From: an uncultured Planctomycetaceae bacterium
Lineage (GTDB): Bacteria; Planctomycetota; Planctomycetia; Planctomycetales; Planctomycetaceae
Length of the DNA stretch: 64,000 bases
Reading direction: 5' to 3'
NCBI GenBank assembly: GCA_963813715.1
Contig: CAWFAK010000014.1
Span: forward strand, 126,810-190,809
Shown: one piece after another, positions 6,092 through 52,868 of the stretch
Position numbering within the stretch: the first letter of the stretch is position 1
How the letters are laid out: each line of letters starts with the position of its first letter
The notes under the pieces: generated by a model
Seen by the model: only the letters and a program-made list of their open reading frames with translations
Databases searched by the model: none
Told to the model about the DNA's origin: nothing
Position numbers and translations under genes: made by a program

Positions 6092-6120
6092 TTGACGCGT
6101 TTTGTCAAAAGCCTTATCGT
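6092..6120 (+). promoter_or_regulatory. sigma70-like promoter
   Basis: TTGACG-N17-TATCGT preceded by A-tracts (UP-element-like). Confidence 0.55.
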
Positions 6121-6126
6121 CCCGCC

Positions 6127-6315
6127 CGCCATTCGACTGCTCACATCAGTTCGCCAACAACCTGACACCAAAATACTGCCGGCAAAAAGGAGACGCAGCG
6201 CGCGACCTCGCGTGCGAGCTTGTCGAAATCTTTTCGCGCGGCTCATGAGCCAATCGCCCCCGGAAGCGACAGGTGTCCTATGCCCCCCTGGGACCCGTCG
6301 CTTCCGGGCTTTTTT
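6127..6315 (+). ncRNA. Candidate ~190-nt small RNA
   Basis: Promoter upstream, intrinsic terminator at end, no credible ORF. Confidence 0.35.
6259..6315 (+). terminator. Rho-independent terminator
   Basis: CCCGGAAGCGAC...GTCGCTTCCGGG stem followed by C-T6. Confidence 0.75.
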
Positions 6316-6367
6316 ATGCGCCGACAATTCGTTCCGCCAATTCACTGATCGAGAATTGCGGAACCGC

Positions 6368-6652
6368 TTACTTCGGGCGCCCATCTTCAGACGAATGCTG
6401 CTGCCGCCCCTCGCGCGACCGGGAGGCGGCATCCAGCAGGTCGGCCGCGGAGAACATCAGGGTCTGTCCCGGCTTGTGCGCAGGGATCCTCCGCCGGTTC
6501 TTCATCGCCGAAAAGCTGCGACCATTCGCCAGGTTCAAGAGCGCGGCCCAGCCATTCGAATCGAGCGTCAAGCCATCAATGATGCACGCGCTCGTGGCCA
6601 GTCGCAAAAACCGGTCGAGAATGATGCGCGCACTCTTCAGACTCCGCCGCAC
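6368..6652 (-). CDS. Excisionase/MerR-like (HTH_17-type) small DNA-binding protein
   Basis: WAALLNLANGRSFSAMKNRRRIPAHKPGQTLMFSAADLL fits the Xis-like helix-wing pattern (IPAxKxG..hF...DL). Confidence 0.55.
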   Translation of the reverse strand: MRRSLKSARIILDRFLRLATSACIIDGLTLDSNGWAALLNLANGRSFSAMKNRRRIPAHKPGQTLMFSAADLLDAASRSREGRQQHSSEDGRPK

Positions 6653-6752
6653 GGCGAATTGATCCGATCAGCCAATTGAGATTATCGATTAATTCGTTAA
6701 GCTGCGGTGCGGGCGCAGGTGGTGAATTCTGCTTAGGCTTGCGGCTTTTTTC

Positions 6753-6780
6753 TTGACGCTTTCGTGCGCAGCGTTAGCGT
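6753..6780 (+). promoter_or_regulatory. sigma70-like promoter, divergent from the Xis-like gene
   Basis: TTGACG-N16-TAGCGT. Confidence 0.45.
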
Positions 6781-6839
6781 AGCGGTTGTTGGCCACGAGT
6801 TTTTCCCTTGAAGCGGGGTCAACTTAAAGCCGGCAACCT

Positions 6840-6882
6840 GGAGTCCCTCGGGCGCTACCACGCTCGAGGGCTCCTTTATTTT
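6840..6882 (+). terminator. Rho-independent terminator closing a ~95-nt transcript
   Basis: GGAGTCCCTCGGGCG-loop-CGCTCGAGGGCTCC then TTTATTTT. Confidence 0.65.
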
Positions 6883-8540
6883 GTGCCGGCCGTTTTGCTG
6901 GGCTTGTGCTTGGCCGCCCCGGATTGCGATCGCGGCCGTCTTTTTTCAGGCACCTCCTTCTGGCTCACTTGCGAGCGAATCGGCCCCGTTTAGGTCGACG
7001 AGTTCGCCTGTTTGGCTTCGACCAACTCGACGGCGACGAAATCTCCCGTCATGAATTTCGCGATTTCTCCCTCGGCCACTGGTGGAATTGACGATTCGTG
7101 CGCAGTGCCGCCGCGCCGCGATCATGCGTGGCCGGCCGATTAAACCCGGAGAGTTTGGTGCAGCGGCGCGATGGTGCGCCGCTTACACGCTGGAGAATCT
7201 GTGCTCGGTTCCGCCTGAATCCATTCCAGGCACGCTTCGTCTTTTGATTCTGCTCGGCTTTCTTCGCGGCACGCACGCAACCTCGAGGGGCGTGCCGCGT
7301 TTGTCGGGGATCGCGGCGGTTTTCCTCCGCGGCGACAAACGCGAGCGGCGCGGCCGCGAAACGCGGTCCGCCTCAGGTCCCACGAGAGACCGTCTCCAAA
7401 CAAACGGCAGAAGCAGGAGCAGAACCGAAAACAGCGGGCGGCAGGTCGGGCTGCCGCCGCCGCACAGATGGGAGGGCTGCGCTCTGGAAATCATGCCAGC
7501 GCGCCGGGTCCGCCGCTCGCGGTCTCCGAAATTCGGAGATGCGCGGTGCCGCAGACTCTGGCACGCTCTGCTTCCGTGTCGCCAATACTCCCTCCGGCAA
7601 ACCAAAAACCCTCGACCTGCCCCGCAGAGGGACGGACCGAGGGCTCCAAGATGGGGATTCGTCGGTGGTGCAATCGTCTTTGCTAGCTGTCTGTCATCAT
7701 CGCGCATCGACACTTGGTGGCGCTCCGCGAGGCAGACGCGAAAATTTTCTCCTCGAATCGAATGCTCGCTCGATGACTCGGTGGACCCAAAGTTGAAATC
7801 AAAACTGCAGCAATTGGATTCAGAACCGCAGTCGAAGTCGGTCGCGTTCCCCTCGACACGGCGGCCCGACGCGGAGATTGGTCGATCGATCGTCTGAACG
7901 AGCGACGGGATCTCAACGGCTCGCGCTGGACAAGGTCGGCACAACGACGGCGATTCGTCGGACTGAGAGCGCGGCGCGAAGAGCCGCGAATTCAGGAAAG
8001 GGGAAGAGCGCGCACGACTCGCGATTTCGGCAGGGATTCGTTGTTGCGAATTCGACCCGCCACTGCCCAGCGTCCAAGCACCCTGTTAGCCCGCCGCCAT
8101 CCATGACCGCACCGGCTCTGCCCGCGAAGTGCGCGTTTTTTTGAGGGGTCCTTAATCGTAACAAGGCCCTCGGCACTTGCGACAGGCAGTGGTCCATCGT
8201 CGGGATGATGGGTGCGGACACGTTCTGCTGCCCGCTACAGGCCCGGACCCTGCCGGAACAATGGCTGCCCGCCTTGGCATGTACTGGCGTTCACTAATTG
8301 TCTAGCGGCATGATACCGCGCGATGTTACGAAAACAAGCCACAAAATCTGGGGAAGATTCGGCAAGGGGGCGCAAGGGAAATGGCGTGGTTTATGTCACG
8401 AAGGGATGCCCCGGCCGGATGCCATCCACGACGCGCGACCGGCTCTCGTTCGCGGATGGAGACCTCCATTTCCGACGCGCGAGGCTGTTACCGTCCAGTC
8501 GGTAATTGACGGCATCCGAATCGCTCCATTAGATGGACGC

Positions 8541-8824
8541 ATGGGTCGCAAGCCTCTCGAACAGCCGCGAAACTGGTCGGGCACGTCGGTCGGCACTGGG
8601 TGCGTCTCCGCCGCAAGCTCTTTGCCACGCAAGCGGAGTTCGCAGCCGCGCTCACCCGCAACGGCCTGAAGGTCACCACGCCGACGGTCTCAGAATGGGA
8701 GCGGGGCTTTCGCATGCCCAACCTGTCCGACCTCCTGGCGATCGCCGCCACGCTCGAGGTCCCAGTCCAATCGCTGATCCCGTCCAAGGCCTTCCTGACT
8801 AAATTCTGCGATAGCCAGAACTAG
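8541..8824 (+). CDS. XRE-family HTH repressor, frameshifted near 8595
   Basis: TQAEFAAAL..VTTPTVSEWERGFRMPNLSDLLAIAATLEVPVQSL is a canonical XRE HTH; N-terminus MGRKPLEQPR in adjacent frame. Confidence 0.8.
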
Positions 8825-9083: not shown

Positions 9084-9449
9084 TTATGCGGTTGAGGTGG
9101 TGTTTGCCGCCTTGAAATCGTCGCATAATACGCAGACCTTTAGATCGGGACGGTCGTTGCGGTATCTCCGTCCCATACACTTGCCGTGCAACTCGCACGC
9201 GAGGATGTCGAACGGTTGCCCCTTCATGCCGCATGCATTGCAAACGCCGCGCTCGAGGACTTCGCCTCGGTGAACGCACGTTGAGTTAAATGGCGATCTG
9301 AGTCGTGGCTTGATTTTGATCGGCTGTGCGCGTTCGCAGATCCGGTGATATCGCTCAGGGGCTTCTGCGGTCATCCGCTCCACACCGCAAACCGTGCAGC
9401 GGATTTGTCTGTTACCGACGCTGACAAATTGGCATTCGGAAGCGCTCAT
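9084..9449 (-). CDS. Small Cys-rich phage protein (end of tail operon)
   Basis: CTVC, CNAC, CELHGKC, CVLC motifs; ATGA overlap with upstream gene. Confidence 0.6.
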   Translation of the reverse strand: MSASECQFVSVGNRQIRCTVCGVERMTAEAPERYHRICERAQPIKIKPRLRSPFNSTCVHRGEVLERGVCNACGMKGQPFDILACELHGKCMGRRYRNDRPDLKVCVLCDDFKAANTTSTA

Positions 9450-10540
9450 GATGACCCTGCCGTCACTGTGACCGTTCCTGGGAAGCAACTCGATCGAGTC
9501 CCGCCTATTTCCGGCGTTAGCGTAAACGGGCCGGGTCCGCATAAGGGAAGTGGCCCCGGCGGGTCTAACGTGCCGACCCCCACGAGGTAGAACGTCGGGA
9601 AGATTTCGCAGGTTGGTCTACTGAGGCCGTAATACGCCCCCGTATTGAAAGAGGCCGAGACGATGTATCCGTAGTTCCACCGATAAACCCCGACTGTAAA
9701 GTAGGCTGAGTATTCGACGTCGCCGTAGCCGCTGTTAAATGGTGGCAAATCAAATCCAGCGCCCCAGCCGCAGGTTAGAATGTCCTCGCCCCCGCCGTAT
9801 CCACCGGCAATGTAGATTCCAGTAAATGGCAGTTCCCAACTGCCATTGATGCCAGGACCGCAGCAGAAGCCATCGCTCACGACTCCCGAGATCGTCAGGA
9901 TGAACGTTTCCGGCGGATCGACGCAGCCACACCCGCCGCCCTTGCATACCAACGTCCAATTACTAAATTGCGCCGCCTGCATTCCACAGAACCCGGCATT
10001 AAACGTGGCGCCGGTCGCTAATTCTGGAAGTTGGACGCCGTCGTCGATTACGTATGTCGATGGTCCGTCCTGCTGAGTGGCGGTGCATGCAATCTCGAAA
10101 GTTCCCGTCTGGTCTATTTCTACGTCAAGCGAAATTACCATTCCATTGTAAGGCGTGCCCGGGACCTGAACCGGGGCCCCGGCCGAGTTGCCGTGGGCGT
10201 CGCACGGCATTTGAAAAATCTGGTTCTGTGCCCAGTCGATATAAAGCACCCTGGCGCTGCCGATGAAGATGCCCGATTGGGCCGCGTTAAGGTCGTTCCA
10301 GATGGTCGCCTGCAGCGTCACTCCTCCGGCGGACCAAGTCCGATCGTTGGGTGCACTCGGATTAGGAGGATTGATCGAAGCCCTCCATAGCGAGCCGTTT
10401 CCGCCTTCCATCTGAAGGCGCGGGGACGCCGTCCACACTGGATTTCCCGCAAAGTCCGTTTGCGTGAATCCGACCGGGGCGTTTTGGGCCGAAGAACCCC
10501 AGCCGCAGGTGCAACAGCACGCACTTGACCAAAAAGACAT
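9446..10540 (-). CDS. Cys-rich tail-tip / putative receptor-binding protein
   Basis: N-terminal CCCTC, internal CKGGGCGC and FCCG; beta-rich; more AT-rich codons; last large gene of tail operon. Confidence 0.5.
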   Translation of the reverse strand: MSFWSSACCCTCGWGSSAQNAPVGFTQTDFAGNPVWTASPRLQMEGGNGSLWRASINPPNPSAPNDRTWSAGGVTLQATIWNDLNAAQSGIFIGSARVLYIDWAQNQIFQMPCDAHGNSAGAPVQVPGTPYNGMVISLDVEIDQTGTFEIACTATQQDGPSTYVIDDGVQLPELATGATFNAGFCGMQAAQFSNWTLVCKGGGCGCVDPPETFILTISGVVSDGFCCGPGINGSWELPFTGIYIAGGYGGGEDILTCGWGAGFDLPPFNSGYGDVEYSAYFTVGVYRWNYGYIVSASFNTGAYYGLSRPTCEIFPTFYLVGVGTLDPPGPLPLCGPGPFTLTPEIGGTRSSCFPGTVTVTAGSS

Positions 10541-10554
10541 TGCAACCCTTACTC

Positions 10555-11225
10555 TTAGCTGAGGCATGGATTGGCGGCGATGAGTTCCCAGCTTCCGTTG
10601 TTGTCGCCAACCCAATCGAACGTCACGCGGATCGGGGCCCCCGAAGATGCGGAGAGCGAGGCGTAGGGGTTATAGACGTTCGGGATCTGAGCTTTCGACG
10701 CCTGCTCGCTGGTCTTCGGACCGGTAATGACGAAAACCGTCCCGGACTGTTGGACATTAATGGTCGTCTGGATTTGGCCGCGGTAGGGGCCGAAGGCCGG
10801 CACGACGAGCGCGTAACCCTGCTGCGGCGAGTCGACCATCGCAAAGCCGGGCATGTCACGCGTCGCCGTCCAACTGCCGTTTGACGGGCCGCACAAACGG
10901 AACGGCGCATCATTGTTGTTCTTGTTGTGGGCCCGAAAGCGCAACGAGCAGCGGCAGGTCGAGGGTTGGTTGCGCAGACGCCGTTGCCTCCCGCTGGGAC
11001 GCTCGCCGCACCGGTGATGTAGCACGCGTAGGGATTGATTGGATCGCCCGGCTGTTCTCCGAGAACGATGGGCGAGGTGACGCTGACGTCCGAGCCGCTT
11101 GGGTCCGGCATCTGCCAACCGGATGCTTCGATAATCGAGTACGGAGGGATATCCTGACCCGATTGGTTCTCGAAGCCGATCCAGCGGATGCGTCCGGCAA
11201 AACGGCTACTCAGCTCTTGAGGCAT
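10555..11225 (-). CDS. Tail-tip protein, frameshifted near 10940
   Basis: MPQELSSRF..FENQSGQDIPPYSII continues in another frame as GPSNGSWTATRDMPGF..NPCLS; position after hub. Confidence 0.5.
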
Positions 11226-12984
11226 GGCGTTGCACTTTGTCGAGACATCGACCGCGGAGGGTCTGGCATCGCGCGTAGAATCCACCCGTGCGCGTGTCCA
11301 ACACACTCCGCCCGAACTGCGTTAGTGTGTAGGCGGCGTTGCGTTCTTTCTCGTTGCGGCGGCGAACCGACCAGGGGAGCACGTAAGGGTTGTGCTCGGT
11401 CGCCAGCGAGGCACGCGTCATCGTCGAGCCGCCCGGCCCGGACGAGATCGAATACGTCACTTGTTGGATCAGGCCGTCCACCTGAATCGGCACGAGCCCC
11501 GCGTAAGGGACGTCGAGCGAATCTTGTTCGATGTACTCCTGGGCGGCTGCCTGCAGGTAGTAATTGGCCTCCGCGTTCAGGTCGTCGGAGTCCGTGTTGT
11601 CGGTGAAGTCGGTGAGGTCGAAGTTGTTGTCGAAAGTCCCGACGGATTTGCCGAATATGTCCTCGTGGCGAATGATGCGGGGCTGAGTCGGCACGGCTGA
11701 GCTGAGCTGCAGATCCTGGGTGTAGCGAAAGAACTCCCAGGTATCCGAGTCTCGAACCGAATAAGCGATCTTCACCTGGATGTTGGCGGGCGAGTACTTG
11801 CCGTTGGACACGGAGTAGAGCTGATCTTCGGTGATGATCAGCCAACGGTCTTCGTCCACCGTGATTCCGTTCTTGTAGGTTCCCTGCGTCGAATCTGGCG
11901 TCTGCACGGTCTGGCCGTACTTGGGATCGAATGAGCCCCAGATTTCCGGCTTTTTCGGCACCGTTTTCGTGGCATCGTTGGGATCGAAGTGTGTGTCGAC
12001 GAGCCGATTGTAAAGTCTGAGCTGACGCATATCGGTTACGTCCGGCGCGTCGTTGCTCGGCACCTGGATGGGCCCATCGACACGCCACATCTTATAAATC
12101 GATTTTTCGACGAGGGGCAGAACGTCTGGCTCGTCATTGAAACTGGGAAAGCCGTTGGGGTCTTCAGTCTCCCAGCCGTTGTCCGGCGCGTAACTCAGGT
12201 CGTCCAGTTCCTGAACGGACCCGTCGGTGTCGATGCCGACTGCCGTCAAGGGGATGAATCCTTGAAAGACCCAGGGGCCGCCAACCAGCTTGATCGAGCT
12301 CGGAGTGTTGGGCGGATCGATTCCCTCCGAGATGAAAGTCTGCAGCCCGTTGTCGGGAAGGGGCTGGCCTTGGCCGACGCTCACGATTCGGACGCTGTCG
12401 TCGGCGAGCCAGTAGACGACTCGGCAGCCCAGACTTTCGCAAAGCGATTGCAACGCTTCGGCCGGATTCGCGTAGGACCAGTCGATCTCGGGCCGCGAGT
12501 CGTTTGGTAGCGCAGAGACGTCGTAATTCTGTTCGTTCATTGCCTGCAAACAGAGCGTCGCAAGATCCTGCGGAGCTTGCTCCGTGCCCGGCCGAATGTT
12601 GTTGCCGTCGCCAGCTTCTTGGTTGTTGCTGGCGGTCGAGTTAAACCCTTCGTCCGCGTTCGCGCCTCCGGGCATCCGCAGGTTGTAATGACCGGAGATG
12701 TAGCCGAACTTCCAGAGCCAACGCCGATCGAGAATCGTGATCCGCGCGATATAGCCTTTTTCGCTCTGATCGATGTGCGCGCTGTCCAACAGGCAATTCG
12801 GCAGGGCAATCCCCAGATCGTTGTACTCGAAGGTGAGATTGCCGGTGGGCTGCAAACCAGTCACGAGGTTTTGCGGCAGCTCAATGGTGCACTTGCCGGG
12901 GCTGATGCCCTGCGAGAGGACGTACTCGGCCTTCGTAAATGTCGCCAGGCCGGGATAGCTGACGATTCCCTGCGGTGCGCTCAT
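11206..12984 (-). CDS. Putative baseplate hub / tail-tip hub protein
   Basis: 592 aa, acidic; PAEALQSLCESLGCRVVY segment typical of hub proteins; position in tail operon. Confidence 0.55.
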   Translation of the reverse strand: MSAPQGIVSYPGLATFTKAEYVLSQGISPGKCTIELPQNLVTGLQPTGNLTFEYNDLGIALPNCLLDSAHIDQSEKGYIARITILDRRWLWKFGYISGHYNLRMPGGANADEGFNSTASNNQEAGDGNNIRPGTEQAPQDLATLCLQAMNEQNYDVSALPNDSRPEIDWSYANPAEALQSLCESLGCRVVYWLADDSVRIVSVGQGQPLPDNGLQTFISEGIDPPNTPSSIKLVGGPWVFQGFIPLTAVGIDTDGSVQELDDLSYAPDNGWETEDPNGFPSFNDEPDVLPLVEKSIYKMWRVDGPIQVPSNDAPDVTDMRQLRLYNRLVDTHFDPNDATKTVPKKPEIWGSFDPKYGQTVQTPDSTQGTYKNGITVDEDRWLIITEDQLYSVSNGKYSPANIQVKIAYSVRDSDTWEFFRYTQDLQLSSAVPTQPRIIRHEDIFGKSVGTFDNNFDLTDFTDNTDSDDLNAEANYYLQAAAQEYIEQDSLDVPYAGLVPIQVDGLIQQVTYSISSGPGGSTMTRASLATEHNPYVLPWSVRRRNEKERNAAYTLTQFGRSVLDTRTGGFYARCQTLRGRCLDKVQRHASRAE

Positions 12985-14225
12985 ACGGCCGTTCTCGTCA
13001 GCGTCAGGTTTTCGCCGAGTTCCAGGCCCGAGAGGTCGTCGGACTGCTCGAGTACGATCACGAGCGAGCCGACGACCTGGTCGGGGTCGATGATCTGGCT
13101 CGAGTCGCCGTACTTTTGAATCGGGTTGGTGACCGTTTTCGGCTGTTGGTCTTTCGAGAAGTCCAAGACGCCCTTGTCGGCCACGACCGGATTGCCGCTG
13201 ATGGTGCCCGTCGAGTTCCAGGTGACGTAACCCGACTGGTTGACGGCAAGGCTGCCCGCACCGCCGATGCCGTAAACGGTGCAGGTTCCCGCGGTCACCA
13301 GCAGGGACGTCATGCCTCCATAGAAGGTGACGTTGCCGCCGTTTTGCGTGACTGTGCCGACGTTGGCCAGGGCACCGATGGTCAATTGCACGTCGCCGTT
13401 GACGTTGGAGACGTAACCGACGTTGAGGTCGTCGACCGTCGCCACGTTGCCCGGAAAGAAGGCGATGCCGACCTGGCCTTTATTGACGTTCACCACGTTG
13501 CCCGCATTCGTGCCGCGCCACGTGAAAGCCGGATTCCCCTGATCGAGCGGCTGGCCCGTGTTGTAGACGTTGAGCGTGCAGATGTTCAGGCCGACATTGA
13601 TCTTGATGCGGCCCGAACCCTGGGCTGACGTGCCTGCGAATTGTCCGACGTTGAGCGACGTCGCCGACGCCGCAAGCTCCGTGGGGCGATACTCGTAGTA
13701 CCCCTTGAGGGGCAGGCCGATTGTGCCCGTGTAGGTCTGGTAAACGCTCAGGCTGTTGAGCGTGATCGAAGGCTGGCTGATGTTGTAGAGGCAGGCGACG
13801 TTGCCCGAGTTGAATACGACGTCGTCGCCGTTGGCGGGGATTGTATCGGACGACCAGTTAGCCGCGTTGTCCCAAAAGTTGGGGCCGGTGCAGGCTGTCG
13901 TCGCCGCTTGCGTGAACGTCGCGCTGCCGGACGTTTGTACGGAAAGGCTGATGGCAAACGGCACGCCTGCCGTGTTGCCCGTCAATGTAATCGCGCTAAT
14001 CGCGTTTTGCGGCGTGAATTCGCCGAACTCGGAGTAGGGGGCGTTGGCGAGGGCTGTGGCGAGGCCGTTGCAGACGTCGGCAATCGTGCCGGCCGCGGTC
14101 TGGTACGAAACGCTCTTGTTGTTGACGGTGACGGCGAATGTGTCGTTCTCGTTGGGGCTGGCAGGGGTCAGCGTCGTGACTTGAGCGACGGGCGCCGCGT
14201 TTCCGGTCCAGGTTTTCGTCGTCAT
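12981..14225 (-). CDS. Virion structural/tail protein with beta-helix-like C-terminus
   Basis: Thr/Gly/Asn-rich; NFWDNAANWS..P..GDDVVF motif; translationally coupled to neighbours. Confidence 0.55.
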   Translation of the reverse strand: MTTKTWTGNAAPVAQVTTLTPASPNENDTFAVTVNNKSVSYQTAAGTIADVCNGLATALANAPYSEFGEFTPQNAISAITLTGNTAGVPFAISLSVQTSGSATFTQAATTACTGPNFWDNAANWSSDTIPANGDDVVFNSGNVACLYNISQPSITLNSLSVYQTYTGTIGLPLKGYYEYRPTELAASATSLNVGQFAGTSAQGSGRIKINVGLNICTLNVYNTGQPLDQGNPAFTWRGTNAGNVVNVNKGQVGIAFFPGNVATVDDLNVGYVSNVNGDVQLTIGALANVGTVTQNGGNVTFYGGMTSLLVTAGTCTVYGIGGAGSLAVNQSGYVTWNSTGTISGNPVVADKGVLDFSKDQQPKTVTNPIQKYGDSSQIIDPDQVVGSLVIVLEQSDDLSGLELGENLTLTRTAV

Positions 14226-14227
14226 GT

Positions 14228-14953
14228 TTAGCTCGCGTTGGGTAGTCCGGTGAGCGATCCGCTGGCCTCGAACGTGTACGACCAGCTGACCGGGTACTCG
14301 AGCTCGCCATAGCGTTGCGGCGAGCTGTATTTGATTTTTCGCTGCTGCTGAATTTCGGCCGCGGGCCAGGTTGGCGGGGGGACGGGCGGCGGCCCATAGA
14401 GCCCGATCGCCGACCCCGATTGAATCACGCGATACGTGCTCGCCTCGGAGGTTTGCTGCTGGATCCAATCGCCCTGCGCGACGGGAATCCAGACGACCAC
14501 CGGGCCGCCGGTCCCCTCGAAGTCCAGGCTCTCCTCGAATTTGACGATGACGTCTGCGCTAGTGAGGGCCATTTCCCCCTCGATCGCGAACGAATAGCTT
14601 CGCCCCGCCGCCGGCTGATACTCGGCCGTGCCGAGCGTGTCGGGAAAACTCGGGGCTTGCACCACCCGCGTGCCGCCGTTGCAATTAGCACTGATCAAGG
14701 CGTGTGCGGTCGGCGTGATTCCATCGTCCAGGTACAGGACAAGGTTGTTGCCATCCACGGAGTACGCCGCGGTCAGCTGTTGAATGGCATTGGTCAGGTT
14801 CTGCTGCGTGGCATAGTTCAGCAGCAATCCCTGGCAGTCCCAACGTTCCTTGTAGGCATAGAAGAGCCCGCCCTGCGAACGCATCGGCTCGCGCGTAATG
14901 CGAATGCTGACTTCGTTCTGGCTGTGCTGATAAGGGCCGTATTTGACGATCAT
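14228..14953 (-). CDS. Putative distal tail (Dit-like) protein
   Basis: First minus-strand gene after tape measure; 241 aa with coding-like composition. Confidence 0.45.
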   Translation of the reverse strand: MIVKYGPYQHSQNEVSIRITREPMRSQGGLFYAYKERWDCQGLLLNYATQQNLTNAIQQLTAAYSVDGNNLVLYLDDGITPTAHALISANCNGGTRVVQAPSFPDTLGTAEYQPAAGRSYSFAIEGEMALTSADVIVKFEESLDFEGTGGPVVVWIPVAQGDWIQQQTSEASTYRVIQSGSAIGLYGPPPVPPPTWPAAEIQQQRKIKYSSPQRYGELEYPVSWSYTFEASGSLTGLPNAS

Positions 14954-15507: not shown

Positions 15508-15598
15508 CATCTATTGTTTAACGATGGGGACAGTCGGGATAACTCGTCATATTGAGCCCGCGGTGAACTCGCGGACGAACTGCACTAGGAGTTGAGCA

Positions 15599-20506: not shown

Positions 20507-20511
20507 CCCGC

Positions 20512-22660: not shown

Positions 22661-22666
22661 TCGGAT

Positions 22667-40423: not shown

Positions 40424-40534
40424 ACAGAGCCACCCTCAGAGCGTGTGCGTGCCACATCGTTCGAATCCAGCGGCTGCCAATTGTACTCAACTGACGGGAT
40501 GCAACCGAGGCGTGGCGCTGCAAACTCCAAAAGG

Positions 40535-42659: not shown

Positions 42660-42686
42660 GGTGGTCACTTTGCGAAAGAGAAGTAT

Positions 42687-43813: not shown

Positions 43814-44384
43814 TCCAATCCTTCCGATTCGAGACGGGCTAAGCAGCGCCGACCTGCTCGGATTCCGACGGGCACTCGATGACCACGCAGAATCGCTCGA
43901 CATATTCGGGAACAGTCGATCAGGGACGGCTCGTTGGCGATCCCCACCTCCGCGGCCAGTTCGGCCAACATGGCCTCGACGGCGGCGCTGATCGGTCGCG
44001 ACCTCGCGCAAGCAGCGAGTCGAGGTGTTCGGGACTTGGTTCGGCTTTCGCGGCGAGCGGGTCGAACGTCAGCAGGATTTTGTTGGCCTCGGCTTCGTCG
44101 ACGTCGAGGATCAGCACGGGGACTAGCTGATCGGGGGCCGTTTCAGCCCGCAAATGTCCGTCCACGAGCTCGAGTCGGCCGTCGGGAAGCTCGCGAGCCA
44201 AAAGAGCATCGGCAAAGCCGATCTCCGCGAGCACACCGGCGAGCGCAGCTCGCTGCGAGGCCGGATGCAGCCGCCAGTTGCGTGGGTTGGGCAACAACTC
44301 GGAGGCACGGACACGTCGCAGTTCGCGAATCCGGTCGCGGAATTGTCGGGTTGGGCGCGTTCTGATCAGAGGCGTTTTCCGCAA
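43792..44384 (-). CDS. ParB/Srx-like N-terminal domain protein (frameshifted)
   Basis: LLPNPRNWRLHP..EIGFA..LVDGHLR. Confidence 0.8.
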
Positions 44385-44389
44385 GGCCT

Positions 44390-45951
44390 TCAGGGTTTGC
44401 GTTCGCGGCGATACTCATCGAGTCCGAAGTACGGGACGCGTTCCACCTGCACCTCGCGATTCGGCGCGCGGGCTTTCGCCACACGGTGTGCCTCGCACAC
44501 GTCGGCTGCGAAGATCATCTCGGTGCGGCGAGTGCGGACTTCGCGTCGCACGCGCCAACGACCGACCCTGGCGAACCTTTTCATTCGATATGCGGGCATG
44601 ACCAGACCGACGAGAACATGACTGGGACCGACCAGCGGGAGAACCGATCAGAAGTCTTCGTCTGCGGGGTTATCGCCTTCCACTGGCAAGTGCCTCGATT
44701 TCACAAGGGGCATTCTGCGCGGCTTCGTGCGCTTCGACGCGCTTGGCCGACTCTTCCGGGCTCCACTCTGCGAATCTGTTCGCACGCCTGGCGAATCTCT
44801 TCTGGCGACGGCATGAATGTCACGCGCGCTCGTGGTTTCCGCGGCGGCACTTCGCGCTCACTGCGATCGACTTCCTGGTTCCGTCCGACGCGCGACGTCG
44901 ACATAGCGGTGCTGCTCCTTCTGGGATCCGAGAGAAAAGTAGACGTGGGCATCTTTCAGTTGCCCGTCGGCGGGGCGGGCAGGCTGACGTCGTAACCCGC
45001 GTTGGAAAGCGCGACGACGACCGACGTGGCCGCCGTTTGCGCCGCAGCCTGGTCGGCCGTCAGTTGGGTTTGGGCTGCCGTGACGGCTGCCTGCGCGTTC
45101 GTGGTGGCGGCTTGGGCCGTCTGCAATGCCGTCGTGTCCGTATCAACCGTTTGCTCGGCCGATTGCAGCGCCAACAGGGCGACAATGATGGGGTCCGTCG
45201 AAATCGTGCTCACGCCAAACTCCTTTGAAAAACGAACGTGGTTTACTCGGGGCAGGGCGCCGCACGTCGCGCGCGTCTTGGTAGGTCACAAACTTGTTGC
45301 CGAAGTCCCAGGGAGCGCAGGCGTCTTCCACGTCGACGTCACCCGAGAAGCCTTCCGACGAGCAGTAGTCCCAGTAAGGGATTGCCGCCGGCCGTGGGTG
45401 ATCGGCGGCGATCGCCACGCGTCGGGCGCGATACCAGTCGAGAGTCATGAGCGGACGTCCGCTGAACGCGAATGCGCGGCGGTCGAGCGTCTCCCAGACG
45501 CCGCGATTGATGCGGAGCGCGGGAGGTGGAAACGGACAGAGAGTGGCGTCTCGTCGGCCGTCACGTACACGATGCGAAAATAGGCACCGATCTTGGCGGC
45601 CAACGCGTTCAGTTCCTTTCCGCGCGTTTCGAGCTCCTTTTTCTGTGACCGCGTCAGCCGGATTGTCGGATTGGGCCGCGTCCAGTTGCGTGTGAGCTCA
45701 CTGCGGAGCATCTGCGACTGCGGTCCGTCGTCGAGCGCGATGGCGAGTGTGGGTTTTGCGCGTCTGCTGCTGACGCTCTGACAGCGCGAACCGCCAGCGC
45801 CAGGCAAGTTATTGCGTGCACGAGGCGACCGATCTGATGGGCCGAATGCATCAATCCCAGTCCTTTTCCGACCACCACGCCCACAGCGCCACGCCAATCA
45901 GGCCGAGCCACACGGCCGCGAGGGAGACGGCGATCGTCAGGAGGCCAGCCA
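44390..45951 (-). CDS. Cluster of small hypothetical genes
   Basis: Coupled short ORFs 44390-44599, 44701-44952, 44956-45213 (Ala/Thr/Gln coiled coil), 45143-45448, and a 33-aa TM peptide from ~45951. Confidence 0.35.
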
Positions 45952-45953
45952 TG

Positions 45954-46990
45954 TCACCAATTCACCGACGTACCGATCGAACCGCCGATCAGTGGGAACC
46001 CGAACAGGCTGAGTTGTGCCGCATGCGTCGCGGGGCTGAACGTCACTCCGGAGCTCGGACGGCCCTGATAGGCGATCGGCGCTGCGTAGGTGTAGGTGTA
46101 GACCGGCTCGCTGTAAGTCACCGAAGTGACGATCGGCTCGGATTCGAGTTCGTGGGGGTGTAGCTCGGGCTGCCCCAGTTCGAGAGCGCCGTTTGCCGAA
46201 GTCACATTGGGCGTCAAGCAGTTTGGAGCGAACAGGGGCGTGCCGCAGTTGGCGAGCGCCGGGGCGGAGTAGAGCGGGGCGTCGTACCGAAGAGGCGAGA
46301 TATAGGCTGGTGCTTCTGCGGTGCCGCTCCGCGACCATTTCTTGGCCGATAGGATGCCGGCCGGCGATTCGCGCCAATTCGTCCGGCGTGCCACCATATC
46401 CAGTGATCCGCGGAGGCTGCTCGATGCCGTCGACGAAGTACACGGTCTGCGGCGTTGAAGGCACGCTCCGCTTTTGGAAGTCGGCCAGCGTCAACAGTTC
46501 GACCAGTTTGAAGTGATTGCGGTCACTGACCCCGCATTTCCAACCGGCCTTTCTCAGGTCCCGAATCTCCGTCGCGCACGGAACGCATCCCGGTTGGCAG
46601 TAGATGATGGCGCCGCTCCAATGCGGCGAGACGTCAGGGCTCGACTCCGAAGTTACGGCGGCAACCGTGTCCGCATCTTCGGCCGGCGGAGCAGGGGGAG
46701 GATTTTCGCCTGTGCCGATTGCGGAACGTTCGGCATTCTTCGCTCGTCGGCATCGTGACTCGAACGGTGCGACGGTTCAGCAAGATCGACGGTGGGAGGG
46801 CCTCCCATGATCGGCGGGCGGGCGAGGGCGGCGACAGTTTCTCTTTCGTCGGGCGATGAACTTACGACGGCCGTCGGCACTTGACGGAAATCGGCCCACG
46901 GATTCGCGGGTTCCGTCGTCGGAGCGCATCCGGTCAGGCGCATCCGCTCAGGGAAATCGCCAGCGTGCCGGCGAGGGCGAGCAGCCGTGG
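45954..46990 (-). CDS. Exported/lipoprotein-like thioredoxin-fold protein (frameshifted)
   Basis: IIYCQPGCVPCATEI (CxxC) in frame with STPQTVYFVDG (cis-Pro loop); Pro-rich N-part and Tyr/Thr-rich tail. Confidence 0.55.
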
Positions 46991-46997
46991 GCCGCTG

Positions 46998-47889
46998 CTA
47001 GAGGGTCGCAAGATGCACATCACGCGTAGTCCCAATTGAGGCAGTACTGGAATTGTCAAACGAGGCCAGGCTGCTCATGCCGATGATTTCTACTTCGCTG
47101 TGCGAAATGTTTTTGCAGAGGTAGTCCCACGCGGCGGGCTGGATGAAGAAGAAGCCTTGGGCACCCCAACCGTCGCTGCCCCAGGAGTTCTGGCCGATGA
47201 GCCAAGCGCGGCCATCGCCGGCGGGTTGCTGGATCGTGGCTGGGCTTGAGGTACCCGATGACCGCCAAGGCATGGCCGCCTTCGGGATTTCGCGCATCCT
47301 TTTGGACCATCTGTGCCGTGAGCGGACCCGAACAGTTTTGGAACTGGTCGCCGACTGGGATGCCGATCTGAATCACGCCGGCCGTGCCGAGGTATTGAAT
47401 GGCCGTCTGGTAGTCGTGGATGACCGAATGCGAGGCGACGAGGTGCAGCTTTGCCTTCGGCCGTCAGCGGCCGCCGGGATTGTGTCAGTGTATTGGCCGG
47501 CGGCCATCGCCGAGCCGTGTAAGGAAAGAGCGACTCTTCGCAGACGCCTTCTTTGCCGGCGGCCGCGACGCTGCCGGCGATGGTTGCGCCGTTGTCGCCG
47601 CCGGTGCAGCCGCACTCCTGCTGGTTCGTGAGGTAGCAAAACATGGCAGAGAGAGCGGGCCCCTTGGCACCGGTCGCCAGATAGTTGAGACGCTCTTCGA
47701 GGCTCGAGCGACTGAAGCCGCGAGCACGAGCCGAGCTGCCCCTGGTCCTTGATCGCCTGGCTCACGCGTCCGTCGATTTCGTCGGGGATGCGATACGCCA
47801 TAAAGTGCGAGCGATCGAATCGCTCGCTGGTTGGCGACGAACCAGGCGTGATTCTCTTGCTGGCGATTCCAGCCCAGACCGCGTTGCAT
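46998..47889 (-). CDS. Papain-like C1 cysteine peptidase (frameshifted)
   Basis: DQGQLGSC (Cys), GGHALAVIGY (His), QNSWGSDGWG (Asn) recovered across frames. Confidence 0.8.
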
Positions 47890-47992
47890 CAACTCGGTCT
47901 CCGTTCGTTGGAAGCTCAGCTTTGAATGCGGATCGTTGCGGGACATGGCGTTGCGATGCACGTCACTGATGGTGTCGAGCTGTGTTTTCAGG

Positions 47993-49843
47993 TCACGGCC
48001 GCTGGCGGAGCCGGATTGGAAGTTGCTGCGGTGCCGTAATTTTGCCGTTGCTGAGAAGACTGAGTGCAGACTTGCAGCGCCGCGATTTGCGCTTGCGATT
48101 GCTGCTGATAGCTGGCCAACTGCTGAGAGATGTTGCGTCAGGTCGCTCTTGGTCGCCGCGTTGGGATCGACCTTCGACAGCCAGGCGAACGACTTTGAGA
48201 GCGATTGCAGCGGCCAAACCAGCGCGGCGGCCGGACGAGCTGCCCTGTGCGAGCATGTCGTAGAGAACGATGCCGAAATAGACGACGATGGCGGTTGTTA
48301 AAAGCTGTCCCATGTTCGTCCCTTGTCGGTCGTCCACTAAGTCGGAGCGGGTCGTTCGTTCGCATTGCGCTCATGTGGACAGATTGCGACTTGCATTGCG
48401 TGGCAATCTTGCGACAGGCGGCTGCCACGCCCTGTTCGTTGAAAGCGATCGGGCTTTCCGTCTGGTTCTGATCAGTCGCGTCGGTGAGCGGCTTGCTGAC
48501 GCCGGCGAACGACTTGCTCCGCACGGCATCGCAAGCGGACGACAGCCAGTCATGCAGATCCTTCGCAGCCGTCGGGCCGCCGTACTTGTGCACGAGAACG
48601 TCCTTTTCCGCTTGCAGATGAATCTGCTTGAACTGCTCACCGTAGTCGGCGGCGTCTTTGTCGACAGTCGGTTTGCAACATCGGGACGATGCTGACCCAC
48701 GTTCGGGAGCGTGAGCTTCCCTTCCTGATGCGCGATCACAGCGGCAAAGCCGCCTACGATGACAAGCGTCGCCGAGCAATTTGCTCATTGCGCCTCCCTC
48801 GACGAAGGCGAGAGAGACTGCGGATTGAGCTCGTTTCGGCCGCGGCCGCCGCCTCGCTTCGCCCACTGCTGCACCTGTGCGTTGAAGGCATCGGCCGACG
48901 CTCCGTATCGTGCCGCTCGCGAACTGACGTGGTCAGGCTCGCAGAACAAAACCTTGATGATCGCGGCGATGATCGGCTCCAAGATGGTAGAGAAAGCGGC
49001 CGTCGGCGGGCAGACGACGCCGAGCACGGCGGTGATGATCGTCGGCCAAGAGCGTCGACGGATCGATGGCCGTTGCATGCGGACGCCGATGGTTGCAGAT
49101 CCGAGTCAGATGCTGCGAACCCAGCGCGGGCGAAAGTGTCTCGGATGTGCTGGGCCAAGCAATTCGATGGTGCGGATCGGGCCGTTGCTAGGCGTGGGCA
49201 GCGCTCGTGGCAATCTCCCAGCGAGCGTTGTGGATTGCCATGATCAACTGCGGCGAGTCGAGCAGCGGTTTGATCGGCGGCGTAGGTCTGCGACCAATCG
49301 ACCGGCATCTGTTTGCGCGGCGATCGCCTGAATGCCCGCGTCGTGAATGCGGTTGAACAGCGATTGAGGATCGCTGCCGTTGCCCAACAGACCCGCGCAG
49401 TTCCACAGCGGACCCCACGGTCGGCATGAGGCCGAAGAAGGCCGCGTTTTGCCGGCAATACGCTTAGCGTTGGCGGCAGCGCAGCTCGGCGTAGGTCACG
49501 TCTGCTCCTGCAGCGGCCGCAACGGGTTTGACGACGGCGCCGCATGAATCTCGTCGATCTTCCGCGGCATCGCTTGCGAAGTTGCGGAGCGATGCCGCCA
49601 GTCGCGATCCACGCCGCATCTCGACGCCGAGTGGCTCGCGCCCCTGAGACGAGCAACTGCGGAACGACCAGGCCGAGGACGATCGCCACAGCCCAGCGCA
49701 CAAGCGAGCGGCTGCACGACGATGTTCACGTCCTCGGCCGTCGAAAAGGCGTCGAAGCGCCAGAGGGCCCATAGCGCGATTCCGACGCAAGCGAGTGACG
49801 CGAGCGCGAGAACGAGGCTTTGCTTTTGCAGTGTGTCAGTCAT
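47993..49843 (-). CDS. Cluster of small membrane/exported proteins, holin-like candidates (frameshifted)
   Basis: TM-bearing fragments: MTDTLQKQSLVLALASLACVGIALW, IITAVLGVV..ILEPIIAAIIKVLF, MGQLLTTAIVVYFGIVLY. Confidence 0.35.
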
Positions 49844-50109
49844 TGCGTTTTCAGTGGTCGATTCTTTTCACTGAGCGCCAATGCGCGGCCGATCACGGCT
49901 TCGGCGACCTTCGCCGAACAGATTTGCCGCACGTTCGTTCCCGTTCGCTTGGGATCGACGCGTGCCCAGTGACCGTCGCGGTCGCGGCTCGGTTCGATGC
50001 TCCAGATCGAGTACGACAGTGGGTTTTCGTACCGGTCTCGCGTGACCAGAATTTGCTTGCGACGCTGCCACTTGGCCGGCCGGCATTCACTGCGATGTCT
50101 CCCTGTTGC

Positions 50110-50321
50110 TCATGCGGCGGCTGGCGGCTCGGGTGTGTCGGATACGTCGCTCAAACCTGGTTGACTCCGGATCGCGTCGTAAATCTCCTGGCGATGCACG
50201 GTGACGTGGTCTGGCGCCGTTATGCCGAGCCGGCAATGGCCTTTCCTGCAGGCGACAACCGTCACCACGATGTCTCGCCGATCACGATTTGTTCGTTCGT
50301 TCGTCGCCCGAGGATCAGCAT
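50110..50321 (-). CDS. csrA: Carbon storage regulator CsrA homolog (1-bp frameshift near 50275)
   Basis: MLILGRRTNEQIVIG / DIVVTVVACRKGHCRLGITAPDHVTVHRQEIYDAI; GAAAGGA RBS. Confidence 0.85.
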
Positions 50322-50407
50322 CCGTGTTTCCTTTCAGTTGCGTTGTTTGCGATGCGTCCAAATCCAGCTCAGCGCCGAGCGAGGTCAGCCAGACGCCAAC
50401 CAGGTGG

Positions 50408-50800
50408 TCAACGTTTGCCCTTTGGCCGTGATTCGTTTGCCGAAGCGGAAGAACTTGTCCGCGGACAGTCGGATTTGCGTTGCAGTTCAGCGAGCAGATC
50501 GTTCTTCACGCCTTGCGTCGTCAGTTCCGAAACGCGATTGATTCCTTCCGCGAGCCGTCCCAGGTGTGCCCGCAGGTCGTTGTCGTGTTGGATGTGGAAG
50601 AGCCGCAGGTCGGTCTTCGCGCTCGACACGCAGTCTTGCGTGTGAGCGATCGCGCCGAGCACTTGCACAAAGGCCGAATGCCCAAACAGGTAGAGGGCCA
50701 AGAATCCGATCCCCCAGGGAACGGGCAGGGTCCCGAGCAACATGAGGGCGCCATCGCCGATGACGATGACCAGCGTCAGGTGCACAGAAAAGTGCCGCCT
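50408..50800 (-). CDS. Membrane protein with coiled-coil tail
   Basis: Two TM segments then helical C-terminus. Confidence 0.35.
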   Translation of the reverse strand, partial: RRHFSVHLTLVIVIGDGALMLLGTLPVPWGIGFLALYLFGHSAFVQVLGAIAHTQDCVSSAKTDLRLFHIQHDNDLRAHLGRLAEGINRVSELTTQGVKNDLLAELQRKSDCPRTSSSASANESRPKGKR

Positions 50801-50867
50801 AAGCGACTTAACACGCCGTCGTGATCGTTCACGGTTTTGATCTTTCGTCGTTGCGTCGGTTCTTCGC

Positions 50868-51209
50868 TCAGTCGTCACCGACAGTTGAGCCCGGGCCACA
50901 AGTGGGCTCGGTCGGCCATTGCGGATGACTGGGCTTGGTGCCAAATCCGGCCGTGACCTTCAGGCACGTAATGCACAGCCCCTGATGCGCGACCTTCTGA
51001 TCGAGCACACGCAGTTCACTCCGCAGTTCGCGGCGGTCGCGCTGCGAGTCCTCTTTAAAGCCTCGAAATGCCTCCACGATTTGGTCCAACTTCACTTCCG
51101 AACGGTTGACCAGTCGGTCGATCCGCTGGAACCAAAGCGCGAAGGGGATGCACAGCGTGACCGCGACGCCGCCGCACGTGCCGATCGCGATCCAAGTTTC
51201 GGCGGTCAC
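50868..51209 (-). CDS. Holin-like single-TM + coiled-coil protein
   Basis: N-terminal TM, charged helical C-terminus; first gene after leader terminators. Confidence 0.45.
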   Translation of the reverse strand: MTAETWIAIGTCGGVAVTLCIPFALWFQRIDRLVNRSEVKLDQIVEAFRGFKEDSQRDRRELRSELRVLDQKVAHQGLCITCLKVTAGFGTKPSHPQWPTEPTCGPGSTVGDD

Positions 51210-51229
51210 GGGAGCGTCGCTTTGCGCAT

Positions 51230-51328
51230 AAAAGGAGCCCGTCCCAAGGATGTCCCCGGACTGGGCAGAGCAGCAAAAAGAAACGAGCGATCGCCCAGCA
51301 CAGGGTTGTGCAGACGATGGCTCGCGTT
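51230..51328 (-). terminator. Two tandem intrinsic terminator-like hairpins
   Basis: Hairpin+TTTCTTTTT (51275-51328) and hairpin+CCTTTT (51230-51266) on minus strand. Confidence 0.5.
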
Positions 51329-51466
51329 AAGCGACTTGTGACCCTCTACGGGTCTCCATCGGTATTCAGTTGTTGTCTAAACCTATCTTTGTCGACTTGT
51401 CCGATTCATTCAAGATCAGTTTCTTGTCAAAAATAGTCTCTCCGGGTTCGCACTTCGATCAATGAC

Positions 51467-51706
51467 TCATTGCCCAACGGCATTGCTCTGCCGCTGCAAC
51501 CGCTTATTGCAGACGCGGCAGTGCTTGTTCGTGTCCTGCTCGCTGACTGGTGCGTCCTTGTTCCGAACCTTGCGAACTTCGTAAGCATCGGTTTCGATCT
51601 CAAGCCTGACGGATTTGCCCGTACAATTGCGGATCCTCGCTCCTCGAAAATGGAACGCTTCGCCAGCCAGCAAATTGACGACTTGGTGGAAGACATCCAT
51701 CTCCAA
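51467..51706 (-). CDS. Small protein, possibly divergent CsrA-like fold plus CxxC
   Basis: GAAGGAG RBS; L..GE....I...GKSVRLEIE pattern; CRVC. Confidence 0.45.
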   Translation of the reverse strand: MEMDVFHQVVNLLAGEAFHFRGARIRNCTGKSVRLEIETDAYEVRKVRNKDAPVSEQDTNKHCRVCNKRLQRQSNAVGQ

Positions 51707-51805
51707 GCTCCTTCCCTCTCGATTCGCACGAATTCAATGTCCGTCTTGGGGAACGGCGAGGACCTTCGAGAGCAGGCCAACTGGCTCGGCGCAGCGCTCG
51801 ACGTG

Positions 51806-52318
51806 CTATTTATCCTCTTGAGCGAAGTATTTTGTCAGCCGGTTCGTGGGTGCATACATCGTCGGGCACTGACGGAAGAGCGAGTAGCGCATCAGGATGC
51901 CGTCACGCCTGCCGCGGAAGTGGTTTCGCACAACCGAGACGGCGACGAATCCGTGTTGATGCAACGCGACGAGTTCGGGCACCTGGCATTCGTGAACGAG
52001 GATCTCTGCGCACGAGCGTGATCGGTTGAGCTTGTTGCGAATGGCGGTAACCACGAGCTCCAGCGTGGCGGCACGATGCTCGCCCGGGCCGATCATCAGA
52101 CGCTCGACGTGGACCGTCGTGCGCTCAAGCCGACACGCGAGCGTGCCAACGACGTCGTCAGCGACGAAAGCCACCTGGACGATCTGGTTGCGGGCCCGGA
52201 GAAACTCGCGATAGGCGTCTTCGGTCCAAGGATCGGCCGCCTGCTCGAAATCGAGCCGTGCGACAGCCGGAAAATCTTCGCTGAGCAACCAGCGGATTTG
52301 AGGTCTGAGGCGACTCAT
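51806..52318 (-). CDS. RimI-like GNAT N-acetyltransferase
   Basis: IRWLLSEDFPAVARLD..PWTE..GFVAVSVVRNHF..DGILMRY; GAGGAG RBS. Confidence 0.75.
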   Translation of the reverse strand: MSRLRPQIRWLLSEDFPAVARLDFEQAADPWTEDAYREFLRARNQIVQVAFVADDVVGTLACRLERTTVHVERLMIGPGEHRAATLELVVTAIRNKLNRSRSCAEILVHECQVPELVALHQHGFVAVSVVRNHFRGRRDGILMRYSLFRQCPTMYAPTNRLTKYFAQEDK

Positions 52319-52358
52319 TCTTGCTCCTCGTGGCTGAGTTGGCGTTCGCAATCCTGCA

Positions 52359-52628
52359 TTACACGCGACGTTGGTAAGCGAGGTTGGGACTTGAATCTGT
52401 CGCGAACGCCTCGAAGGGAGCCTCCAACCGCTCTCCAGGCTGCAGCTCTTGCCCGACCAGGAAGAGGGCAACGCTTCGGGGCAGATAGATGCTTGCGGGA
52501 CGGCCCGGATTGCCGCTCGTGCCGATGTCGCTGTACCACTCACCGCGTTTATCGGCCGGCTCGGATGTGAAGAGTTGATGACACTTGTCGCCGCATCGAT
52601 CACGACAGATCCCAAAACTGCGTTTCAT
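52359..52628 (-). CDS. Hypothetical protein
   Basis: GGAAGG RBS before ATG; 89 aa. Confidence 0.35.
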   Translation of the reverse strand: MKRSFGICRDRCGDKCHQLFTSEPADKRGEWYSDIGTSGNPGRPASIYLPRSVALFLVGQELQPGERLEAPFEAFATDSSPNLAYQRRV

Positions 52629-52840
52629 GCGCGCACCTTCCTCGCAGAGAAGTTCCGTAGTTTTTCGGAAGAACTCGCCAAGGCCGACTTCGGCGAGTCT
52701 CAATGCACAGGCCGACTGCGTTGGCGTCGCACTCGATCGATCAGCGCAAGCCAGCGTGCGCAGCCGAGCGTTCGACGTGGAACGCGATCGGCCACTCACC
52801 TGCGGCGACTGCCGGTCGTTTCTGCGTGCTCATGTTGGCC

Positions 52841-52868
52841 ACTGTAACCGCGTCGATTTTTGCGTCAA
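52841..52868 (-). promoter_or_regulatory. sigma70-like promoter at right end of element
   Basis: TTGACG-N16-TACAGT with an ATG 7 nt downstream. Confidence 0.45.

Follow-up and report, generated by a model that had tools for sequence, protein, structure and literature searches.

The window analysed here is the terminal 64 kb (64,000 nucleotides) of contig C14 in the genome of an uncultured member of the Planctomycetaceae (G000; 7.49 Mb in 18 contigs, 82.6% complete), and it holds an element bearing the head, packaging and tail genes of a siphovirus-type prophage. Comparison with relatives places this element at ~9.1-52.3 kb, a span of ~43 kb that is narrower than the 6092-52868 given in an original prediction for this stretch, with an ArnT-like glycosyltransferase gene on its left and a BON-secretin operon on its right. 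The virion genes lie on the minus strand in the canonical order (Table 1). The left edge is formed by a gene for an XRE-family regulator, which is the neighbour of the ArnT-like gene throughout the relatives, G005 among them, and has orthologues in G006, G009 and G003; the border itself falls at ~8.9-9.1 kb, beside the last tail genes. The relatives named below are labelled G002-G011, and 12 genomes of the genus were compared, G000 included.

Table 1. Features of the prophage-like element, with positions in the window (aa, amino acids; nt, nucleotides; dN/dS, ratio of nonsynonymous to synonymous divergence; HTH, helix-turn-helix; GC, guanine plus cytosine content)
Feature	Position	Strand	Family match or other evidence
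XRE-family HTH regulator	8600-8824	+	PF01381 1.6e-7; phrog_4/3/8 repressor families
Last tail genes (receptor-binding end)	9108-11216	-	tblastn to G006 3796-6843, 40-56% aa
Three distal tail/baseplate-like genes (592, 414, 241 aa)	11206-14953	-	High codon scores, orthologues
Low-GC (0.55-0.58) opposite-strand insert with MJ0042-type zinc ribbons	15016-17545	+	PF13717, phrog_8032, TIGR02098
Tape measure gene, 2.19 kb	17915-20106	-	Position after chaperone pair; tblastn to G006 730-aa open reading frame
130- and 129-aa pair, tail-assembly-chaperone position	20114-20901	-	94-95% aa to G006; dN/dS 0.07-0.10
Tail tube protein	21013-21930	-	PF18906 6e-12; dN/dS 0.15 (G000 vs G006)
Small head-tail connector-position genes, 420-aa unknown, FN3/Ig-like protein	22021-27674	-	FN3 protein 26277-27008: fn3 3.8e-12, phrog_4971
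Two tandem membrane-anchored paralogues (337, 351 aa) with SGNH/GDSL-like motifs	27702-29843	+	Conserved FLGDS, WDxLHLN in alignment
520-aa gene in G006, two frames in window	29858-31413	-	Weak GH5-like match, PF00150 1.1e-4 in G006
Host repeat, REP/MITE-like	32158-32239	intergenic	13 other copies in G000 genome
Major capsid protein	33163-34407	-	PF25209 4.9e-13; HK97-fold capsid family
271-aa gene (scaffold/decoration position), 425-aa putative prohead protease, conserved 204-aa gene	34558-37381	-	
Portal, lambda family	37456-39165	-	PF05136 4.5e-16; phrog_21 1.5e-36; dN/dS 0.06-0.09
DUF1579 host-type gene between portal and TerL	39857-40423	-	PF07617 4.9e-31
TerL (large terminase)	40335-42377	-	phrog_38, 5.7e-52
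ABC-type ATPase-GNAT fusion gene and ParB-like gene	42690-44384	-	phrog_11143; ParB-like PHROGs; directly upstream of TerL
~14 small early genes	44393-52318	-	Orthologues in G002, G006, G009, G010, G005
Papain-like protease	47040-47892	-	PF00112 in G009 and G005
CsrA, partial match	50167-50274	-	PF02599; one of 12 CsrA matches in G000 genome

Family scans with Pfam and PHROGs, which took in ~145 open reading frames (ORFs) of the window, identified TerL, portal, capsid, tube and the FN3 protein, and comparison with the short-read relative G006 supplied the chaperone-position pair, the tape measure gene and the distal tail genes; the virion kit that had been predicted is thus borne out. TerL itself returned no match in PDB sequence searches. 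The major capsid protein is 96% identical at the amino acid level to those of G006 and G007 (synonymous divergence, dS, 0.57 and dN/dS 0.03 against G006), while its relatives beyond this small group reach at most 53% identity, in a family that counts 1822 database proteins; the lineage is therefore a branch standing apart within a widespread family of phage capsids. Capsids 85% and 75% identical were met on two further contigs, the first of them 647 kb long. The 271-, 425- and 204-aa genes that follow it show dN/dS values of 0.09, 0.16 and 0.06 against G006; the putative prohead protease among them (35520-36794) is called from weak matches only (phrog_15531, 5.9e-4; phrog_29592, 3.9e-6). The scans found no sheath family, and the tail is of the non-contractile kind. 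Its 592-, 414- and 241-aa distal genes had no family match in the Pfam and PHROGs scans, and are 68%, 57% and 79% identical to their G006 counterparts (dN/dS 0.16, 0.37 and 0.15), with G005 orthologues at 45-62%. The block at 22021-27674 is variable between relatives, the same version being present at 91% nucleotide identity in the IMG/VR locus L044 and a different one in G006. Portal, protease, capsid and tube had all been described as intact; this holds for portal, capsid and tube, the protease call is weak, and the assembly breaks the frames of TerL, the tape measure gene and the 520-aa gene. The tape measure gene equals the 730-aa G006 gene in length and is read in three frames, with switches at ~19600 and ~19200 in the frame plot, and the frames of the last tail genes likewise appear broken or diverged.

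A recognisable apparatus for integration was sought in and around the element. The tyrosine integrase family PF00589 has 12 matches in the G000 genome and the serine recombinase family PF00239 has 8, with none of either in the window and the nearest PF00589 match, a weak one, 77 kb away. There is no tRNA in the window, and direct repeats shared by the two element ends reach 12 nucleotides at most, to be compared with 10-14 nucleotides in shuffled sequence. The original prediction of an element lacking integrase, recombinase, tRNA and attachment (att) repeats therefore stands, and it extends to the relatives: no tyrosine integrase was found in the element copies of G002, G003, G005, G006 and G009, where the PF00589 matches lie elsewhere, and none lies in or beside any copy examined. 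Recombinase, transposase and replication families were likewise not found in Pfam, PHROGs and NCBIfam scans of the ORFs of the window, G009, G006 and G005, in which ~15 early ORFs carry no annotation. The Xis-like gene that had been named among the early genes could not be recovered, the small ORFs giving no Pfam match to such a gene at E values up to 0.05.

The position of the element is shared. Homologues of TerL occur in 10 of the 11 other genus genomes; the whole search covered 41 genomes, counting G000, of which 17 have one. In all six close relatives the element sits at the same locus, with the ArnT-like gene on one side and the BON-secretin operon on the other; the same flanks were recovered by blastn in G002, G003, G009 and G006, and G010 and G007 are represented by matching contigs. 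The copy of G006, on a 42.5-kb contig matching window positions 6.7-47.6 kb, is nearly complete, and capsid, tube, portal and TerL genes of G007 were found on separate contigs, with the virion kit being complete in G000, G006 and G007. The comparison of this site across genomes that had been proposed alongside the prediction consequently yields an occupied locus in every close relative and no empty one. In the outgroups G005, G011 and G004 the BON-secretin operon is kept with nothing of the element beside it, and there is no synteny beyond, so that a clean empty site is not available there either.

Divergence of the element follows that of its host closely. By Nei-Gojobori estimates, with codons anchored by tblastn, the concatenated dS values of element and host agree for 20 of the 21 pairs of genomes compared, examples (host/element) being 0.47/0.47 for G009-G006, 0.99/1.11 for G006-G000 and 0.31/0.20 for G009-G003. 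Estimates for element genes followed those for host genes throughout the pairs. Maximum likelihood trees (IQ-TREE), built from 9993 nucleotide columns for the host and 7752 for the element, have the same topology, ((G009,G003),(G006,(G010,(G007,(G000,G002))))), and differ solely in the order of G010 and G007, a node supported at 59% in the element tree. The comparison of trees that had been proposed thus shows congruence apart from this node, and the common locus, host-like dS and congruent topologies together indicate vertical inheritance of an element that is copied only with the chromosome. The element appears, from these comparisons, to have been fixed beside the ArnT-like gene before at least seven species of this genus of soil Planctomycetaceae diverged. 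Long residence is also suggested by its host-like GC content (with dips at 15-19, 39-41 and 50-53 kb), by the host repeat settled within it, and by the presence of DUF1579, DoxX, SGNH-like and CsrA genes inside it.

These same observations bear on whether the element could instead be an active temperate phage that escapes recognition of its genes for integration, excision and replication because of their divergence, and that co-diverges with its host by reinfecting only its own species. Such a phage would be in keeping with the presence of all modules under purifying selection, with the repressor-like XRE gene and large unannotated early region, with the exchange of modules seen in the G005 copy, and with IMG/VR contigs carrying 96-98% identical capsid genes, which are predicted viral contigs rather than shown virions. 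It is nonetheless improbable. The element occupies one locus in all six close relatives and is ArnT-adjacent in G005 as well, and its host-like dS and branch lengths should both have been broken by lytic replication or host switching. No att repeats are present, no integrase accompanies any copy, including the otherwise complete ones of G005 and G006, and the early ORFs, at no more than ~430 aa, are short for a helicase, primase or polymerase.

Selection on the element can be read from the same alignments. Over the 21 pairs, host genes have a concatenated dN/dS of 0.14-0.20 and element genes one of 0.10-0.23, apart from G000-G002, where a value of 0.46 is inflated by indels in G000. Between G000 and G006, for which host dS is 0.99, the structural genes show dS mostly of 0.6-1.5 and dN/dS from 0.03 in the capsid gene to 0.37, with 0.09 for the portal and 0.15-0.37 for tail genes, these being the dN/dS values whose calculation had been proposed. 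These low ratios indicate that head, tail, packaging and early genes have been under purifying selection. The ratios of nonsynonymous to synonymous changes on terminal branches of lineages without a capsid gene (element/host 0.27/0.21 in G009, 0.26/0.30 in G003, 0.25/0.17 in G002 and 0.25/0.23 in G010) reveal no relaxation of selection on the element genes that remain. A recently acquired prophage is excluded by these data, as is neutral decay.

The alternative offered with the original prediction was a cryptic prophage, that is, a functionless remnant in passive decay whose low dN/dS would stem from past activity and a few captured genes. Relatives have undergone several independent deletions and an inversion, TerL fragments stand alone in G005 and G011, and the window as assembled has many frame breaks, all of which have the appearance of such erosion. 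Purifying selection does not fit with it: dN/dS of 0.03-0.37 at dS ~1 in every module is far from the neutral value of ~1, the terminal-branch ratios of the element match those of the host, and the ORFs are intact in relatives assembled from short reads, exemplified by G006 (TerL 521, portal 532, capsid 414 and tape measure 730 aa). Passive decay is accordingly held to be quite unlikely.

Approximately 70 single-base indels are unique to G000, most of them insertions outside homopolymers, and G002, which is 92% identical, is without them. Host blocks in a multi-genome alignment contain 0, 1 and 3 non-triplet indels unique to G000, and the portal gene contains none. Those of the element are strongly clustered at 40.5-50 kb, at up to ~13 per kb, perhaps owing to coverage, strain mixture or polishing, with 6 insertions in the 3' part of TerL and just downstream (40515-41097), 12 indels at 42650-44400, 5 at 44950-46650, 39 (29 insertions and 10 deletions) at 47020-50050 and 5 at 50350-51400. 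Five single-base insertions in the area of TerL (40664, 40805, ~40900, 41040 and 41097) are missing from relatives and from soil-metagenome contigs that are ~95% identical and come from separate studies rather than from reads of the G000 organism; one such contig differs from window positions 48028-48858 by 32 gaps and 60 mismatches. Lineage-specific substitutions at 47020-50050 number 59 in G000 and 115 in G002, whereas those of host blocks are balanced. Many indels without extra substitutions, together with the bias towards insertion, point to consensus error rather than decay, and the frame breaks of the window are most likely sequencing or assembly errors. Real decay of the G000 copy was set aside as the main explanation on these grounds. 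The roughly twofold excess of lineage-specific substitutions in G002 recurs through the early region at 42650-51400 (115 vs 59, 51 vs 28 and 16 vs 6), for which relaxed selection or recombination following loss of virion genes are possible causes.

The consequences for individual genes are considerable. The TerL ORF spans 681 aa in the window and 521-541 aa in relatives, and matches the phrog_38 profile over positions 251-583 of 760, compared with 251-709 in G009; the longer ORF is taken to be an artefact of the insertions. The true end of TerL probably lies at ~40.77-40.80 kb, the 3' (nuclease) part being frame-shifted as assembled by single-base insertions. Some genes match one family in two or three frames, and the host secretin and ArnT-like genes do likewise. 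The secretin gene (55179-59611, minus strand) is split into ORFs of 1196/1216 and 248 aa, with single-base insertions at ~55904 and ~55976. Genomes assembled from short reads (G006, G007 and G009) have it as one uninterrupted ORF of ~1500 aa, while it is split in G000, G003, G004, G008 and G011, the last four being few-contig assemblies, and its split in G000 is probably an assembly error. The ArnT/PMT-like glycosyltransferase gene (4090-5939, plus strand) changes frame at ~5165 through a deletion unique to G000, its G009 counterpart encoding 617 aa. As a practical warning, clustered single-base insertions in the G000 assembly give TerL the false look of a long gene that is intact and make the early genes resemble pseudogenes.

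The early region retains ~10 kb of phage-type genes, and its frames are heavily broken as assembled. Directly upstream of TerL lies an ATPase-GNAT protein of 408-429 aa, matching phrog_11143 at 2.3e-103 in G009 and spread over three ORFs and frames in the window; the predicted RimI-like GNAT is thus real as a domain, forming the C-terminal half of this fusion rather than a protein of its own. CsrA and XRE genes are present as foreseen, and the element-borne CsrA is conserved in G010 and G005, being full-length in the latter. Of the remaining early ORFs, ~15 are without annotation after the Pfam and PHROGs scans, and nothing usable came for them from NCBIfam, from two look-ups in protein atlases or from sequence searches of the PDB.

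Several further sequences, host-type genes among them, are lodged in the structural module. The zinc-ribbon insert separates the distal tail genes from the tape measure gene, and by blastn is absent from G006 and partial in G003. The two SGNH-like paralogues lie on the opposite strand to the structural genes around them, hold the same place in L044 (86% nucleotide identity) and are represented by a single copy beside XRE in G009, G006 and G003; they had no PDB or Pfam match. This ~350-aa plus-strand protein, which in relatives lies at the edge of the prophage, was entertained as a divergent integrase and ruled out on account of its transmembrane segment, SGNH/GDSL-type motifs and lack of a recombinase match. 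A DoxX-like gene (DoxX_2) joins DUF1579 between portal and TerL in the relatives G009 and G006, and is absent from the window. Of the host-type repeats said to occupy the intergenic spaces, one clear case was found (32158-32239); it is missing from the same spot in G006 and L044, as indicated by alignment gaps.

Taken together, it is very probable that the element is vertically inherited, integrase-less and under selection. Since selection has lasted after immobilisation, the element would be expected to do something for which the cell or its population is selected. The explanation favoured here, to which an even chance is assigned, is of an integrase-less, chromosome-fixed and selectively maintained siphovirus-type prophage, probably competent to form particles in G000, G006 and G007. 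In the proposed scheme, an XRE-type switch would be released and, with post-transcriptional action of the CsrA that the element carries, the early genes would be expressed; heads and non-contractile tails would then be built and DNA packaged by TerL, the outcome being a PBSX-like or gene transfer agent (GTA)-like 'grounded' particle producer in those lineages that hold the full kit. That particles are still being made is given somewhat less than an even chance.

A number of findings weigh against this explanation, among them the fate of the virion genes in relatives. The capsid gene is present in 3 of the 12 genus genomes and the tube gene in 6, counts on which the incompleteness of the assemblies bears (completeness is below 90% in 8 of the 12). 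The capsid gene was lost independently four times, in G002, G009, G010 and G003, each time by a different deletion or rearrangement. The sister species G002 (host dS 0.18) is without the equivalent of window positions 11.8-39.1 kb; G009 lacks that of G006 5407-30663, with its deletion junction within the last tail gene; in G010 window position 23.1 kb is joined to 37.3 kb inside one contig; and G003, a single-contig genome, is both inverted and deleted, with TerL split and no nucleotide match to ~19.1-27.8 or 29.8-37.6 kb, its deletion junction differing from that of G009. Repeated deletion of virion genes implies that selection for particles is weak or conditional. The G005 copy is an inverted mosaic. 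Next to it lie the counterparts of the ArnT-like gene, at 50% aa, and of the epimerase gene, at 83% aa; it has homologous tail genes (45-76% aa), early genes mostly at 46-60% and three weaker ones at 28-35%, and CsrA, papain-like protease and XRE all present; its head module is non-orthologous, comprised of an HK97-type capsid (PF05065), an S78 protease and a PF04860 portal, which implies that the lineage has recombined with other phages. No lysis genes were identified in the element, and its ~15 unannotated early ORFs could hide integration or replication functions. Were the G000 indels real, TerL, the tape measure gene and most early genes would be dead there, and pairwise dN/dS, as an average over time, does not reach the present activity of the G000 copy.

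The rearranged copies themselves display some unusual junctions. The 25-kb deletion of G009 has created a 718-aa ORF (L022:3315-5468) in which the 204-aa post-portal gene is fused in frame to the last tail gene. One end of the G003 inversion falls inside TerL, leaving its halves on opposite strands ~7 kb apart (G003:C1:6286783-6295384). Within the mosaic region of G005 (G005:C2:5725001-5805000; L048-L051) the portal is split into 224 and 313 aa, and a DUF5131 gene is present. Lone TerL fragments at 52-55% aa identity occur at G005:C2:6875763-6876917 and G011:C2:775472-776500 with no other element gene within the surrounding 80 kb, and look like remnants of further related prophages.

The pattern of loss also bears on how far a true GTA can be entertained, namely a system under host control through XRE and CsrA in which random host DNA is packaged by the headful and delivered to kin. 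The missing integrase and att sites, a vertical mode of inheritance seen in host-like dS and in the agreement of the trees, the purifying selection acting on the structural genes and a complete head and tail kit in three lineages all accord with the GTA-like system originally predicted, and that part of the proposal survives. The structural cluster is, however, not conserved, having been lost in four of six close relatives; the ~10-kb phage-type early region has been kept, which described GTAs are not known to do; and the G005 copy bears a swapped head in the manner of phage module exchange. On these three counts a conserved GTA is not shown by the data, and a true GTA is judged distinctly unlikely, the same low standing being given to gene transfer proper. 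The virion module appears dispensable over short spans, four close relatives having removed it and kept portal/TerL and the early block intact. A more demanding version of the preferred explanation would have the G000, G006 and G007 elements be working, host-maintained particle systems packaging chromosomal DNA, either GTA-like or as a PBSX-like killer, and would give the retained portal-TerL-ATPase/GNAT-ParB-CsrA-early block a selected, capsid-independent function in the virion-deleted lineages; this combination is considered unlikely, if still worth stating.

The element is best described as a good candidate for a domesticated particle maker, though an unproven one. It is from phage clusters of this kind, inherited vertically, without an integrase and under selection, that GTAs and phage-derived bacteriocins arise, and this genus provides a natural series at one locus, at host-like divergence, that runs from the full kit, through a tail alone with a swapped head, to the packaging and early block alone. 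Such a series makes testable both what is selected and how domestication proceeds. Among the papers listed by a literature search on gene transfer agents and Planctomycetes, none treats a planctomycete GTA, as judged by titles or the starts of abstracts, and the searches made turned up no description of a system of this kind in the Planctomycetota.

Among known systems, the lambda- and HK97-like siphoviruses share with the element a PF05136 portal, a PF25209 HK97-fold capsid, the order of tube, chaperone and tape measure genes and an XRE regulator; the element differs from them in having no integrase, excisionase, att site, recognisable replication module or lysis cassette, and in the host-type genes placed between its portal and TerL. 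The RcGTA of Alphaproteobacteria is encoded by a cluster of ~15 kb that is conserved over an order-level clade and is not known to include a phage early region. Vertical inheritance, purifying selection, the lack of integration genes and a gene order from terminase to tail are common to both, but the element is ~43 kb long, early genes making up ~10 kb of it, has a range that does not extend beyond part of a single genus and is frequently truncated, and the two have no sequence relationship beyond generic phage families. PBSX of Bacillus subtilis is a myovirus-like particle that packages ~13 kb of host DNA and kills sensitive strains. The element resembles it in lacking an integrase, in holding one chromosomal locus in related species, in its Xre-family repressor by the structural genes and in its complete head and tail, whereas its predicted tail is non-contractile, and its structural genes have been lost in most close relatives. 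Finally, the domesticated, 'grounded' defective prophages of enterobacteria, reportedly described by Bobay, Touchon and Rocha in 2014, are likewise vertically inherited remnants at orthologous loci, under purifying selection and subject to deletional erosion; unlike them, the present element spans dS ~1, retains a complete virion kit in three lineages and belongs to the Planctomycetota.

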